A program made the translations under genes and the position numbers. 64,000 nt of DNA from Escherichia coli. Its GTDB lineage: Bacteria; Pseudomonadota; Gammaproteobacteria; Enterobacterales; Enterobacteriaceae. The notes under the pieces were generated by a model, which had not been told where the DNA came from, searched no databases, and saw only the letters and a list, made by a program, of their open reading frames with translations. Positions 10,667-50,252 of this stretch are shown in pieces (within the stretch, counting starts at the first letter, position 1; the number at the start of each line of letters is the position of its first letter). The stretch lies in NCBI RefSeq assembly GCF_003334315.1, contig NZ_QOWR01000017.1; one strand, written 5' to 3'.

Positions 10667-10960
10667 TCAGTTACTCTGCAAGTCTTGCTGCGCTTCGTTG
10701 ATCAGCGCATCGGCAATTTTGCCGGTGTCCATTTTTAGTTCACCGTTACGAATCGCCAGTTTTAACGCTTCGACACGTTCAAGATTGATATCACTGCTGC
10801 CGGGTTGCATCAGTTTTGCTTGCGCGTCGCTTAACGTCACACTGGTGCTGGTGGAGGCGGTTGTTTTTGCCGCCCGGCTGTTCGTTACCGGCGCGTCAGT
10901 GGTTTCGCGCGGTTGAACGGTGCTTACAGGCTTCAGAGGCGAAGTGCGATCAATACTCAT
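10667..10960 (-). CDS. flgM: anti-sigma-28 factor FlgM
   Basis: 97-aa ORF, Ser/Thr-rich N-terminus, adjacent to flgN. Confidence 0.93.
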
Positions 10961-19146: not shown

Positions 19147-19176
19147 AACTCAAGTCCGGCGGGTCGCTGCCGATAA
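19147..19176 (+). promoter_or_regulatory. candidate sigma-28 promoter for flgKL
   Basis: Exact -10 GCCGATAA at 19169-19176; the -35 is a weak match. Confidence 0.45.
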
Positions 19177-19209: not shown

Positions 19210-20853
19210 ATGTCCAGCTTGATTAATAACGCCATGAGCGGACTGAACGCGGCCCAGGCGGCGTTAAATACGGCAAGTAATAATATCTCCAGCTATAACG
19301 TTGCCGGATATACCCGCCAAACCACTATTATGGCGCAGGCCAATAGCACGTTGGGCGCTGGCGGCTGGGTTGGCAATGGTGTCTACGTTTCTGGTGTGCA
19401 GCGTGAGTATGATGCGTTTATTACCAACCAGTTACGTGCGGCGCAGACGCAAAGTAGCGGTCTGACTGCCCGCTATGAGCAGATGTCGAAAATCGACAAT
19501 ATGCTCTCCACCAGTACCTCTTCGCTGGCAACACAGATGCAGGATTTCTTCACCAGCCTGCAAACGCTGGTGAGTAACGCGGAAGACCCGGCAGCGCGCC
19601 AGGCGCTGATTGGGAAATCAGAAGGATTGGTGAATCAGTTTAAAACCACCGATCAATATCTGCGCGACCAGGACAAACAGGTCAATATCGCGATAGGTGC
19701 CAGCGTTGATCAGATCAACAACTACGCTAAACAAATTGCCAGCCTGAACGATCAAATCTCGCGCCTGACAGGCGTGGGGGCAGGGGCGTCACCTAACAAT
19801 CTGCTGGATCAACGCGATCAACTGGTGAGCGAATTAAACCAGATTGTTGGTGTAGAAGTCAGCGTTCAGGATGGCGGCACTTATAACATCACGATGGCCA
19901 ATGGTTACTCACTGGTTCAGGGAAGTACGGCGCGGCAACTGGCGGCAGTTCCTTCCAGCGCTGACCCTTCTCGTACGACTGTCGCTTATGTTGATGGGAC
20001 GGCAGGCAATATTGAGATCCCGGAGAAATTACTGAATACCGGGTCGCTGGGCGGCATTCTGACATTCCGTTCTCAGGATCTGGACCAGACGCGTAATACG
20101 CTTGGACAACTGGCGCTGGCATTTGCCGAGGCTTTCAACACCCAACACAAAGCCGGATTTGATGCTAACGGCGATGCCGGTGAAGATTTCTTTGCTATCG
20201 GTAAGCCCGCGGTTCTGCAAAACACGAAAAACAAAGGTGACGTTGCGATCGGTGCCACGGTAACTGATGCCTCCGCGGTACTGGCGACAGATTACAAAAT
20301 CTCGTTCGATAATAATCAGTGGCAGGTCACCCGCCTTGCCAGCAATACCACTTTTACGGTGACGCCGGATGCCAACGGTAAAGTGGCATTTGATGGTCTG
20401 GAGTTGACGTTTACAGGAACGCCTGCCGTTAACGACAGCTTCACGCTGAAACCAGTAAGTGACGCCATCGTCAACATGGATGTATTAATCACCGACGAAG
20501 CGAAAATAGCGATGGCGAGCGAAGAAGATGCGGGTGATAGCGATAACCGCAACGGTCAGGCCCTGCTGGATCTGCAAAGCAACAGTAAAACGGTGGGCGG
20601 TGCGAAATCCTTTAACGACGCTTATGCCTCGTTAGTGAGTGATATCGGTAATAAAACCGCGACGTTGAAAACCAGTAGCGCCACGCAAGGTAATGTGGTG
20701 ACGCAGCTTTCCAATCAGCAGCAGTCGATTTCCGGTGTCAATCTCGATGAGGAGTACGGAAATCTGCAACGTTTTCAGCAGTATTACCTGGCGAATGCGC
20801 AGGTTCTGCAGACGGCAAACGCGATTTTTGATGCGCTGATTAACATTCGCTAA
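19210..20853 (+). CDS. flgK: flagellar hook-filament junction protein 1 (HAP1)
   Basis: 547-aa ORF. Confidence 0.95.
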   Translation: MSSLINNAMSGLNAAQAALNTASNNISSYNVAGYTRQTTIMAQANSTLGAGGWVGNGVYVSGVQREYDAFITNQLRAAQTQSSGLTARYEQMSKIDNMLSTSTSSLATQMQDFFTSLQTLVSNAEDPAARQALIGKSEGLVNQFKTTDQYLRDQDKQVNIAIGASVDQINNYAKQIASLNDQISRLTGVGAGASPNNLLDQRDQLVSELNQIVGVEVSVQDGGTYNITMANGYSLVQGSTARQLAAVPSSADPSRTTVAYVDGTAGNIEIPEKLLNTGSLGGILTFRSQDLDQTRNTLGQLALAFAEAFNTQHKAGFDANGDAGEDFFAIGKPAVLQNTKNKGDVAIGATVTDASAVLATDYKISFDNNQWQVTRLASNTTFTVTPDANGKVAFDGLELTFTGTPAVNDSFTLKPVSDAIVNMDVLITDEAKIAMASEEDAGDSDNRNGQALLDLQSNSKTVGGAKSFNDAYASLVSDIGNKTATLKTSSATQGNVVTQLSNQQQSISGVNLDEEYGNLQRFQQYYLANAQVLQTANAIFDALINIR

Positions 20854-20864
20854 GGGGAGATAAG

Positions 20865-21818
20865 ATGCGTTTCAGTACACAGATGATGTACCAGCAAAAC
20901 ATGCGTGGTATCACCAATTCTCAGGCAGAATGGATGAAGTACGGCGAACAGATGTCGACGGGTAAGCGAGTCGTTAACCCTTCTGACGATCCCATTGCTG
21001 CATCACAAGCCGTAGTTCTCTCCCAGGCACAGGCGCAAAACAGCCAGTACACGCTGGCGCGTACTTTCGCCACTCAAAAAGTGTCACTGGAAGAGAGTGT
21101 ACTTAGCCAGGTCACCACTGCTATCCAGAATGCTCAGGAAAAAATTGTCTACGCCAGCAATGGCACCTTGAGTGACGATGACCGGGCCTCGCTGGCTACG
21201 GATATTCAGGGGCTTCGTGACCAGTTGCTGAATCTGGCAAACACCACTGACGGTAACGGGCGCTACATTTTTGCCGGTTATAAAACAGAGACTGCGCCGT
21301 TTAGCGAAGAGAAAGGGAAATACGTCGGTGGAGCAGAAAGTATTAAGCAACAGGTCGATGCTTCGCGTTCGATGGTGATAGGACATACGGGTGACAAAAT
21401 TTTCGACAGTATTACCAGCAACGCAGTAGCGGAGCCAGACGGTAGCGCTTCTGAAACCAATCTTTTTGCCATGCTGGATAGCGCCATCGCAGCCCTGAAA
21501 ACGCCGGTCGCGGATAGCGAAGCGGATAAAGAAACCGCCGCTGCGGCGTTAGATAAAACCAACCGCGGACTGAAAAACTCGCTGAACAATGTCCTGACCG
21601 TTCGCGCGGAATTAGGCACGCAGCTGAACGAACTGGAGTCGCTGGATTCATTAGGTAGCGATCGCGCTTTAGGGCAAACGCAGCAGATGAGCGATCTGGT
21701 TGATGTGGACTGGAATGCAACTATTTCATCTTACATCATGCAGCAAACGGCATTGCAGGCATCGTATAAAGCATTTACCGATATGCAGGGATTGTCGCTC
21801 TTCCAGCTCAACAAATAA
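20865..21818 (+). CDS. flgL: flagellar hook-filament junction protein 3 (HAP3)
   Basis: 317-aa ORF. Confidence 0.95.
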   Translation: MRFSTQMMYQQNMRGITNSQAEWMKYGEQMSTGKRVVNPSDDPIAASQAVVLSQAQAQNSQYTLARTFATQKVSLEESVLSQVTTAIQNAQEKIVYASNGTLSDDDRASLATDIQGLRDQLLNLANTTDGNGRYIFAGYKTETAPFSEEKGKYVGGAESIKQQVDASRSMVIGHTGDKIFDSITSNAVAEPDGSASETNLFAMLDSAIAALKTPVADSEADKETAAAALDKTNRGLKNSLNNVLTVRAELGTQLNELESLDSLGSDRALGQTQQMSDLVDVDWNATISSYIMQQTALQASYKAFTDMQGLSLFQLNK

Positions 21819-21859
21819 GCTCGCTTTAAAACATATCATGAAACTGGGTATGTTTTGTC

Positions 21860-21897
21860 TGCCTGCTCTGGGATCGCCGGGGCGGGCATTTTTTTGC
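21860..21897 (+). terminator. candidate terminator in flgL 3' UTR
   Basis: Imperfect stem tgcctgc/gcgggca (one G-U pair) with a large loop, followed by TTTTTTT at 21890-21896. Confidence 0.45.
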
Positions 21898-21964
21898 CTA
21901 TTTTGCATTGTTGGTTAGCAAGGATGCCATTCGATGAATTTTAATATGTTGATTCAAAGATGAA

Positions 21965-21993
21965 ATAAAAAAGCCCTGGCAGTTACCAGGGCT
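21965..21993 (-). terminator. rho-independent terminator downstream of rne
   Basis: 8-bp stem agccctgg/ccagggct, loop cagtta, followed on minus strand by TTTTTTATTT. Confidence 0.65.
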
Positions 21994-22013
21994 TGATTAC
22001 TTTGAGCTAATTA

Positions 22014-25000
22014 TTACTCAACAGGTTGCGGACGCGCAGGAGCGGCAGAGGCATGATGTGTTGCCGTATGACCACCTGCGGCACCTTTACCTTCGAAGGC
22101 AAAAGTAGGGCGCTGCCAGTCACTGTGACGCGGTGCCTCCGGAACATATTCCGGTGCTGGAGCGCGCGTCATTGGCGCGGTAGCGTGGTTATGCTCAACG
22201 GTGACCTCAGGTTCGACCGCAGCTACCGTTTCAACTTCTGCTGCGACTTCAGCGACTACTGGCGCGGCAGGTTGAGCAACAACTTCAGGTTCAGCAACTA
22301 CAACCTCAGCAGTTTCGACAACTTCTTCAATATCTGCCGTCTCTTCCTGCGGTTCAACCACCGGTTCTGCTTGTTCTGCAACTTCCTGGGCTACGGCAAC
22401 ATCAGACTCGGTAATCACCTGCGGCTGTTCAGTTACCGCGGCAGCGATCACTTCAGGATGCGTCGTTTCAACCACTTCCGGTTGCGGTTCGGCAACCTGA
22501 ACGGGGGCTTCTACGACACCGGCCACTTCTTCAACAACTGGCGCGCTAACAACCGGTTCGATAGCGGCGGCGACAGGGACCTCAGTCACCATCGGCTGCA
22601 CATGTACTTCTTCCTGTTCGCGCTGCTCTTCAACCTGTACATCTTGCGGACGTACAATTGGATAGCGGATCCAGACTTTGCCAGAGGCCAGTTCCGGAGA
22701 CGCGCACGCTACGGTCAACGGCATTGGCGACTGGGTTGGATAACGCTCGTCACGATAGCGACGACGACGCTGACCACTTACGCGCAGGTGACGAGGCGAG
22801 CGGCGAGAACGACGCGGCATGCCACCGTTGTCACGGTTATCAGCATTGTTCTCTTCTTGCTGTTCTGGTGCAGTTTGCGCTACGACTGGCAGCGGGACTT
22901 TCACCAGTTCTGTGCGTGGAGCTGGCGCTTCCTGAACAATTGGTTCGGCAGCGATAGTTTCTTCAACCACCGGTGCGACTACCGCTTCTTCGGCTACGCT
23001 TTGCTCGTAACGCACTTTCTGATTGAGCTGACGCTGTTTACGACGCGGCTGAACCGGACGTACACGTTCTTCCTGTTCGGTTTCCTGAACAGATTGCTCT
23101 TCAACATTCAGCGCCTTCGCTTCTTGTTGCGCCTGACGTTTATCATCATTACGGCGGCGGCTACGTTCACGACGCGGCGCTTGCTGCTCGTCGGCGGTAC
23201 GCGCTTTTTCCGTTACCTCAGCCTGCTGACGGCTCTCACGCGTCTCGGCAGTCTGCTGCTGTGCCTGGCGACGATTACGACGGTTTTCTTCGCGATTATC
23301 GCTGCCTTCAGTACGTTCACTACGGGTGTCGCGGCGCTCATTACGGTCACGGCGGTTGTTCTGACGAGGCTTGCGACGATCCTGTTGACGTTCCGGTTTC
23401 GCTTCTGCTTTCGGTGCTGGTTGCTCGGTCGGTTTGGTTTCTTCACCACCGCTGAACAGCGCTTTCAGTGCGCCGAAGAAGCGGCTCAACAGCCCAGGTT
23501 GTGCAGGAGCTGCTGGTGTTGCCGGTGCAGCTTTCGGTGCTGGAGCTACAACAGGCGCGGCAGGTTCAGCTGGCGTTGGCGCAGGCGGCACATCCGGCAT
23601 GGCAAAGGTTGCCAGCGCAGGTTGTTCCGGACGCTTACGTTCAGCGAACTCTTCTTCAGACGGCAGCGCCATCGCTTCTTCATGCAGCTTCGGCAGCATG
23701 TAGCTTAAGGTTGGGGTTTCTTCCCCTTTACGCACGCGCAGCACGTGGTAGTGCGGGGTTTCCATCTGATCGTTTGGCACAATTACACAGCGCACACCGT
23801 CCTGACGAGTTTCAATGGCATTTACCGCAGAACGTTTTTCATTCAGCAGGTAAGAAGCGATTGGCACAGGAACAATGGCGTGAACTTCCTGGGTGTTCTC
23901 TTTCAGCGCTTCTTCTTCGATCAGACGCAGAATAGAGAGCGACAGCGATTCGTTGTCACGCACGGTGCCAGTACCAGAACAACGCGGACAAACGTGATGA
24001 CTGGATTCACCCAGTGATGGGCTCAGGCGCTGACGGGACATTTCCAGCAGGCCAAAGCGAGAAATATGGCTGATTTGAATACGCGCACGGTCCTGACGCA
24101 CCGCTTCACGCAGACGGTTTTCTACCGCACGCTGGTGGCGTACTGGCGTCATGTCGATGAAGTCGATAACAATCAGGCCGCCGAGGTCACGCAGGCGCAG
24201 CTGACGAGCAATCTCATCGGCAGCTTCGAGGTTAGTGTTAAACGCGGTTTCTTCGATATCGCCGCCGCGGGTCGCGCGTGCGGAGTTGATGTCGATGGCC
24301 GTTAACGCTTCGGTGCTGTCGATAACAATGGAACCACCAGACGGCAGACGAACTTCACGCTGGAAGGCGGACTCGATCTGTGACTCGATCTGGTAGTGGC
24401 TGAACAGCGGGATCTCGCCGGTGTACAGTTTGATTTTGCTGCTGAAATCCGGGCGACCTAATGCAGCGATATGCTGACGTGCCAGTTCGAGCACTTTCGG
24501 GTTATCGATAAGGATTTCGCCGATGTCCTGACGTAAGTAATCGCGGAATGCGCGAACGATTACGTTGCTCTCCTGATGAATCAGGAACGGGGCCGGGCGG
24601 CTTTCAGCGGCTTTTTTGATGGCTTCCCAGTGTTTCAGACGGAAGCTTAAATCCCATTGCAGCGCCTCAGCAGATTTGCCGACGCCAGCGGTGCGCACGA
24701 TAAGCCCCATGCCTTCCGGCAGTTCAAGGCTTGCCAGTGCTTCTTTTAATTCGGTACGGTCGTCGCCTTCGATACGGCGAGAAATGCCACCCGCGCGCGG
24801 GTTGTTCGGCATCAGAACCAGATAGCTACCCGCCAGACTGATAAAGGTGGTTAATGCCGCGCCTTTGTTGCCGCGCTCTTCTTTATCGATCTGAACAATG
24901 ACTTCCTGACCTTCACGCAACACATCTTTAATGTTGGGACGACCATGAGCACTGTAGTTAGCAGGGAAATATTCGCGGGCAATTTCTTTTAGTGGGAGGA

Positions 25001-25199
25001 AACCGTGACGTTCAGCGCCGTAATCAACAAAAGCAGCTTCCAGACTCGGTTCAATGCGGGTGATTTTACCTTTGTAGATGTTTGCCTTTTTCTGCTCGTG
25101 CCCTGGACTTTCGATATCCAGGTCATACAGACGCTGCCCATCTACAAGGGCAACGCGCAACTCTTCCTGCTGAGTTGCGTTGATTAACATTCTTTTCAT
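22014..25199 (-). CDS. rne: ribonuclease E
   Basis: 1061-aa ORF: N-terminal catalytic half, then Arg-rich and acidic/Pro-rich low-complexity scaffold half. Confidence 0.96.
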
Positions 25200-25560
25200 C
25201 GTAACTTACTCATTATTCTTACATTGACGACTAAGCTGCGGGCAAAGTAACGCCTTTCCGGGTGTGAACCGATGGCCTCGTGTCTAGTCGCGTCGCCAAC
25301 CTCACGGTTATCGTCAGCTCAAAGAGGCGCAGAGTGTCGGTTGCCCGTTTTTCATGCGGAAAAACAGCGCAATTATCAAAGAAACAGACTGGGTATTACT
25401 CTCCAGAAATATTTCCATCTACCGGTAAGGACTGCAACCCGCAGCCCGCTAACTGCCTGAAAGATCAATACGTCTTACGCCATTGCTGCGTGGATGATCG
25501 GTCGGGCAAAATGGGTTATTCCGTAAAATTTCTTGTTTTAACAAGGATGGACACGGAAAC
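25200..25560 (-). promoter_or_regulatory. rne 5' leader (autoregulatory UTR)
   Basis: Long untranslated region upstream of the rne start; established knowledge that the rne leader is long and RNase E-responsive; boundaries approximate. Confidence 0.5.
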
Positions 25561-49921: not shown

Positions 49922-50179
49922 ATGAAAAACGTAAAAACCCTCATCGCTGCGGCGATTTTAAGCTCCATGTCATTTGCCAGCTTTGCGGCTGTCGAAGTTC
50001 AGTCAACGCCAGAAGGCCAACAAAAAGTCGGTACAATCAGTGCTAACGCGGGGACAAATCTGGGATCGCTGGAAGAGCAGCTGGCGCAAAAAGCGGATGA
50101 GATGGGCGCAAAATCTTTCCGTATTACTTCTGTAACCGGTCCGAATACCCTCCATGGAACAGCAGTAATTTATAAATAA
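49922..50179 (+). CDS. bhsA: multiple stress resistance protein BhsA (YcfR)
   Basis: 85-aa ORF with signal peptide. Confidence 0.9.
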   Translation: MKNVKTLIAAAILSSMSFASFAAVEVQSTPEGQQKVGTISANAGTNLGSLEEQLAQKADEMGAKSFRITSVTGPNTLHGTAVIYK

Positions 50180-50218
50180 GCATTAACCCTCATTAATGCC
50201 TGCTACTGCTGATTTTTT

Positions 50219-50252
50219 CCCCGCGACATGCCGTGTCGCGGGGATTTTTTTT
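50219..50252 (+). terminator. rho-independent terminator downstream of bhsA
   Basis: 10-bp stem ccccgcgaca/tgtcgcgggg followed by TTTTTTTT. Confidence 0.7.

Follow-up and report, generated by a model that had tools for sequence, protein, structure and literature searches.

At this locus, flgL and rne converge on a spacer at positions 21819-22013 of the window, the 64,000-nt stretch of Escherichia coli DNA analysed here. The spacer length of 195 bp proposed in a first-pass annotation of the sequence was borne out by the ends of the two open reading frames (21818 and 22014) and by annotated matches. A 401-nt query spanning the spacer had matches in all 5426 complete E. coli genomes, many at 100% identity, and the features annotated under the identical matches were flgL and rne. 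The upstream part of the spacer corresponds to the small RNA FlgO, and each of the two genes is followed by a terminator of its own (Table 1).

Table 1. Features of the flgL-rne region, with positions in the window
Feature	Position	Strand	Basis or remark
Sigma-28 promoter-like site TCAAGTCC-N11-GCCGATAA in the flgJ-flgK gap	19150..19176	+	consensus scan, 13/16; flgK starts at 19210
flgL CDS (317 aa), parent gene of FlgO	20865..21818	+	list of open reading frames; RefSeq annotation under identical matches
FlgO small RNA (78 nt), MG1655 flgO b4826	21818..21895	+	MG1655 annotation, alignment, covariance model, published Northern blot and Hfq co-immunoprecipitation
Variable 5' leader ending in a conserved U-tract	21818..21826	+	AGC here, AUU in K-12
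SL1, 11-bp stem (21827-21837 with 21847-21857), loop AUGAAACUG (21838-21846)	21827..21857	+	fold
SL2, Rho-independent terminator stem-loop of flgKL and 3' hairpin of FlgO	21860..21888	+	terminator scan; fold
U7 tail, termination point and presumed binding site for the Hfq proximal face	21889..21895	+	sequence
Spacer between both terminators	21896..21960	none	unconserved between genera
Same stretch, site of a GNAT/DUF1778 gene pair in other genomes	21896..21960		spacer interrupted in about 13% of E. coli genomes, by this gene pair in E. coli 042
rne Rho-independent terminator	21961..21994	-	stem 21994-21971, then UUUUAUUU; terminator scan and fold
rne CDS (RNase E, 1061 aa), convergent with flgL	22014..25199	-	list of open reading frames; RefSeq annotation

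Terminators and the flgO gene between flgL and rne

Both strands of the spacer carry a G+C-rich hairpin with an immediately following U-run, the hallmarks of Rho-independent terminators, and the one on the minus strand lies downstream of the rne stop codon. The stem of the plus-strand hairpin, SL2, has 12 pairs as RNA (8 G-C, 1 A-U, and 3 G-U) closed by a 5-nt loop, and its T-run is invariant in an alignment of 62 homologous sequences. The first-pass annotation had described an imperfect hairpin and T7 run at 21860-21897; hairpin and run are real, and SL2 looks imperfect as DNA only, because the irregular positions are G-U wobbles. On the minus strand, the terminator scan returned a 10-pair hairpin at 21994-21971 followed by TTTTATTT. 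This hairpin, made of 9 Watson-Crick pairs and 1 G-U pair, starts 20 nt past the rne stop codon, and it is the terminator of rne. Its earlier description as a strong 8-bp hairpin at 21972-21993 with a T-run thus had the hairpin and the U-run right and slightly undercounted the pairs. Both hairpins are real features beyond chance: the plus-strand RNA of 21819-21897 folded with -31.4 kcal/mol (z = -5.45) and the minus-strand RNA of 21955-22013 with -21.3 kcal/mol (z = -5.35), and in each case none of 200 shuffled sequences did as well. We rejected the bidirectional use of either terminator, as the reverse orientations have no proper U-run. The arrangement resembles that of other convergent gene pairs with back-to-back Rho-independent terminators, in that two opposed hairpins with U-runs lie about 75 nt apart, one per gene. 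It differs from a plain pair of convergent terminators in that the terminator on the flgL side also forms the 3' portion of a small RNA that is conserved.

The RefSeq annotation of MG1655 contains an ncRNA gene, flgO (b4826, 'small RNA FlgO'), at 1140986-1141063, whose first base is the last one of the flgL stop codon. When we aligned MG1655 with the window, flgO fell on 21818-21895 with 75 of 78 nucleotides identical and differences at FlgO nt 2, 3, and 61. A comparison with published flagellar sRNA coordinates, proposed in the first-pass annotation, therefore ends in equal coordinates, and the statement in that annotation of a sigma-28-dependent FlgO derived from the flgL 3' UTR proved correct (Melamed et al. 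2023, eLife, PMC10578931), as did its placing of the RNA's 3' end at the first hairpin and T-run. It had also stated that the boundaries cannot be set from sequence alone; for K-12 they are known, and the RNA starts with the A that closes the flgL stop codon and ends within the U7 run. Consistently, the cloning primer SM041 starts at that last A and SM042 lies at window positions 21915-21937 (PMC10578931), and a sRNA catalogue based on RIL-seq gives the same FlgO coordinates. A covariance model built from 62 homologues, the window sequence among them, scored the window FlgO with 77.5 bits (E about 6e-16). Rfam 15 had no match overlapping FlgO (21818-21895) even at E <= 1, and a FlgO family is absent from this release; the Rfam matches in the spacer, asX2 at 21901-21994 (+) and BSnc120 at 21950-22011 (-), were at chance level (E about 0.5-1). 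We conclude with a probability of about 95% that positions 21818-21895 on the plus strand are flgO, encoding a 78-nt Hfq-binding sRNA, a statement that covers identity and biogenesis together. The locus thus holds an already described and annotated sRNA, FlgO, plus the rne terminator, and the match shows that the K-12 flgO annotation transfers cleanly to a non-K-12 strain.

The window and MG1655 share the locus, strand, length, two hairpins, U7 tail, and convergent flgL-rne context of FlgO. The differences are GC in the window instead of UU in K-12 at FlgO nt 2-3 (window 21819-21820), adjoining the mapped 5' end, and C instead of U at nt 61 (window 21878), so that a G-U pair in the terminator stem becomes G-C. 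Because of the change at nt 2-3, the exact 5' end assigned to the window FlgO is an extrapolation and could differ from that in K-12. An exact-match search with a 61-mer across the 5' part of FlgO found the window allele in 2929 and the K-12 allele in 1127 of the 5426 E. coli genomes. Hence, GC at nt 2-3 is the majority state in E. coli, and the published FlgO experiments were all done with a minority version.

Downstream of FlgO the sequence is far less constant. When we compared flgL 3' loci, the DNA past the FlgO U-run could not be aligned between genera, and in ∼691 of the 5426 complete E. coli genomes (∼13%) the match to the window breaks directly after this U-run. In E. coli 042 (locus L002, 3116-3990) the spacer is replaced by minus-strand genes for a GNAT-family acetyltransferase and a DUF1778 protein, a pair that looks like a toxin-antitoxin pair. 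This strain retains FlgO, with a T6 run, and also the rne terminator. Upstream of rne, at 25224-25560 (-), we observed a full-length match (260 bits) to rne5 (RF00040), the autoregulatory element of the RNase E 5' UTR.

Two further candidates were examined and rejected. A 31-bit match of the covariance model at 50183-50251 (+) covers the terminator half only (CCCCGCGAC...GTCGCGGGG with U8) and has SL1 deleted; it is a generic terminator following an 85-aa open reading frame (49922-50179) and not a second copy or paralogue of FlgO. A small open reading frame beginning at the ATG in the SL1 loop (21838) has no Shine-Dalgarno sequence, its frame overruns the terminator, and other genera have TTG, CTG, or TGG in place of the ATG.

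Biogenesis and Hfq binding

The expression of FlgO has been characterised in K-12. It originates in the flgL 3' UTR, and Northern blots of a fliA mutant show a strong drop in its level; a 5'-phosphate-dependent exonuclease depletes it, showing that it is a processed RNA, and it runs as a doublet of ∼75 nt (PMC10578931). FlgO ranks fourth among the most Hfq-enriched RNAs, while among the four sigma-28 sRNAs it has the fewest RIL-seq targets, and its overexpression changed neither flagella number nor motility (PMC10578931). An independent Hfq-CLASH study also found the flgL 3' UTR to be TEX-sensitive and bound to Hfq, with one read ending in ...GGGCGGGCATTTTTTT. For the strain of the window, sigma-28 dependence, processing, and Hfq binding are to be expected from the 96% identity to the K-12 sequence and the intact structure. 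The U7 tail and a U-rich tract ahead of the terminator are features that may serve Hfq binding.

The flgKL transcript that yields FlgO probably starts at the promoter-like site between flgJ and flgK, judging from the match of this site to the consensus. A consensus scan, which a promoter could escape, returned no sigma-28-like site around position 21818, where FlgO begins, and a similar scan, with the same caveat, returned no sigma-70-like site within 21000-23000. These results agree with the published model in which FlgO arises by cleavage of the flgKL mRNA and not from a separate transcription start. Across the window, the closest fit to the sigma-28 consensus lies elsewhere (TAAAGATT-N11-GCCGATAA, 15/16, 11030-11004 on the minus strand), upstream of a 97-aa open reading frame (10667-10960, minus strand) in the expected place of flgM.

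From these observations we propose the following pathway. The flgKL genes would be transcribed from flagellar promoters, among them the sigma-28 site ahead of flgK, and transcription would stop at the terminator formed by SL2 and the U7 run. The mRNA would then be cleaved at or just past the flgL stop codon, probably by RNase E-type processing, a nuclease we suggest from the making of other 3' UTR sRNAs. The released 3' fragment, consisting of the leader, SL1, a short U-rich linker, the terminator hairpin, and the U-tail, would be bound and stabilised by Hfq. Such a route would place FlgO with FliX (from the fliC 3' UTR), CpxQ, SdhX, GadF, and MalH, which are likewise excised from mRNA 3' ends, promoter-less, and bound to Hfq, and which share the Rho-independent terminator of the parent transcript. 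These RNAs differ from FlgO in having defined seeds and validated targets. Moreover, they are of the type with an open 5' seed, whereas the conserved single-stranded element of FlgO is a hairpin loop.

The authors of the K-12 study proposed that FlgO occupies Hfq, by titration or by recruiting another protein, rather than pairing with mRNAs (PMC10578931). Its very strong Hfq enrichment with few partners (PMC10578931) is consistent with this proposal, as are the U-rich linker and U7 tail, which have the appearance of a classical Hfq-binding module. However, titration would require neither a specific loop sequence nor an overexpression that remains silent, as it did for motility and flagella (PMC10578931), and we consider this role of FlgO unlikely.

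Conservation of the upstream hairpin

The hairpin upstream of the terminator, SL1, was absent from the earlier annotation. Its 11 pairs are A/U-rich and enclose the 9-nt loop AUGAAACUG. For the analysis of conservation we scanned for FlgL with one genome per species, which gave 69 loci, Salmonella not being represented among them. A two-hairpin module that begins at the stop codon and ends with the U-run, ∼77-83 nt in all, lies behind flgL in numerous enterobacterial genera, including Escherichia, Citrobacter, Kluyvera, Atlantibacter, Cedecea, Kosakonia, Leclercia, Lelliottia, Trabulsiella, Franconibacter, Silvania, Dryocola, and Pluralibacter, among others. The module is missing after flgL in Pseudocitrobacter and Hafnia among the 69 loci, and SL1 is altered in two loci. 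One of the FlgO loops differs in Salmonella according to the authors of the K-12 study (PMC10578931). Two sequences carry labels from outside the Enterobacteriaceae: a 280-bp contig filed under Arthrobacter agilis (L072) has no difference from the flgL end and FlgO of E. coli K-12, and in a sequence labelled Chryseobacterium sp. 18061 (L041) the flgL-FlgO locus is of enterobacterial type. In both cases the public assembly would seem to be contaminated or mislabelled.

We aligned 62 distinct sequences, which together represent about 20 enterobacterial genera, and counted pairs for a specified structure. Standard pairs were formed in 93.8% of the alignment cells, compared with 28-53% when the partners were slid against each other; 14 of 20 pairs had changes on both sides, and not one of 500 shuffles reached any of the five measures. 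Changes on both sides occurred in 9 of the 11 SL1 pairs, and the SL1 stem varies freely, for example from AACAUAUC/GGUAUGUU to GGGCGUGUC/GGACACGC. For SL2, compensatory changes were present in 5 of the 9 core pairs, and 97.5% of the cells were paired. RNAalifold, run without guidance, recovered the same two helices. Hence, the fold, the covariation counts, and RNAalifold all give FlgO two hairpins, the second being the terminator with its U-tail. In the SL1 loop, the core GAAAC is conserved in at least 90% of the sequences.

In Intestinirhabdus alba (locus L026, 3454-3592), ∼60 nt with an extra G+C-rich hairpin separate the flgL stop codon from the module, which is intact and scores 79.9 bits in the covariance model. 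The module is therefore independent of an abutting stop codon. Taken together, the conservation pattern of SL1 and its loop argues for selection on more than termination, with the caveat of the loop reported to differ in Salmonella.

This pattern bears on the simplest explanation of the locus, according to which the spacer holds two convergent terminators and nothing else, and the ∼78-nt RNA is a stable remnant of flgKL decay that is bound to Hfq through its U-tail and has no function. The silent overexpression of FlgO, the scarcity of reproducible RIL-seq partners, and a low score for sRNA-likeness in a RIL-seq classifier (0.07-0.15) all agree with such a remnant. But SL1 is not needed for termination and yet has compensatory changes in most of its pairs across about 20 genera, its loop core is conserved, and Intestinirhabdus keeps the whole two-hairpin module in spite of the insertion after the stop codon. 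We therefore doubt that FlgO is a mere remnant.

SL1 and the terminator could also act in cis, as a 3' UTR structure that sets the stability or the processing site of the flgKL mRNA, with the released RNA being incidental. The position of the module directly past the stop codon, which is kept in nearly all genera, is compatible with a role in cis, and structured 3' ends are known to shield mRNAs from 3' exonucleases. However, the terminator hairpin alone would shield the 3' end, and an action in cis explains a conserved stem and not a conserved loop sequence. The rank of FlgO in Hfq enrichment, fourth, also speaks against it (PMC10578931), and in our view a purely cis-acting module is quite improbable.

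Our best guess is that FlgO is a trans-acting RNA with the nearly invariant SL1 loop as its recognition surface, serving either as a seed for a few mRNAs, with gatC as the foremost candidate, or as the place where a partner protein binds. We favour a sequence-specific interaction because the SL1 loop is conserved in sequence, and consider a pure by-product of termination less likely. The results that speak against a function in trans are those from K-12, namely the unchanged flagella and motility upon overexpression and a target set smaller than those of the other three sRNAs (PMC10578931).

A candidate pairing with gatC

The top RIL-seq partner of FlgO, and the sole one present in four conditions, is gatC. 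Between FlgO nt 21-41 (AUGAAACUGGGUAUGUUUUGU) and nt 1244-1264 of the gatC coding sequence, within its 3' part, 20 of 21 pairs are possible. The score for ungapped pairing was 39, compared with 24.3 +/- 2.7 (maximum 32) in 86 chunks of equal size from the window, but this contiguity-based score was picked after the duplex had been seen. The RNAduplex energy was not discriminating, with 44 of 100 shuffled FlgO sequences pairing as well with gatC. The pairing would also need SL1 to open, and the loop difference reported for Salmonella likewise counts against it. Two other listed RIL-seq partners lie in the window, and neither the ptsG 5' UTR (ptsG, 38701-40134) nor flgA had complementarity to FlgO above background.

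The abundance of the target could offer another origin for the FlgO-gatC chimeras. In MG1655 (locus L073, 2169000-2179000), gatC is annotated as a pseudogene and gatR, encoding the repressor of the operon, is split by IS3E. The interruption of gatR derepresses the gat operon in K-12, making its expression constitutive, and the sheer abundance of gat mRNA may thus explain the RIL-seq chimeras. The gatC site is invariant in four divergent E. coli alleles, but this is uninformative because the site sits in a conserved coding stretch, ∼70 nt of which are invariant. The pairing is not discussed in the main text of the K-12 study (PMC10578931). We therefore present the predicted FlgO-gatC pairing as a lead, not a demonstration, and hold it only tentatively. 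The fuller proposal, that FlgO regulates by base pairing, which its nearly invariant SL1 loop (AUGAAACUGG) would nucleate towards the 3' end of the gatC coding sequence, is to our mind a possibility with the odds against it.

Overall, selection acts on the upstream hairpin of FlgO and on the loop of this hairpin in many enterobacterial genera, which argues for a sequence-specific function of this RNA, and a concrete pairing with gatC is now available for testing. If it holds true, the pairing would couple the expression of late flagellar genes to the galactitol PTS, and the motility assays in which FlgO had no phenotype would have assayed the wrong phenotype.
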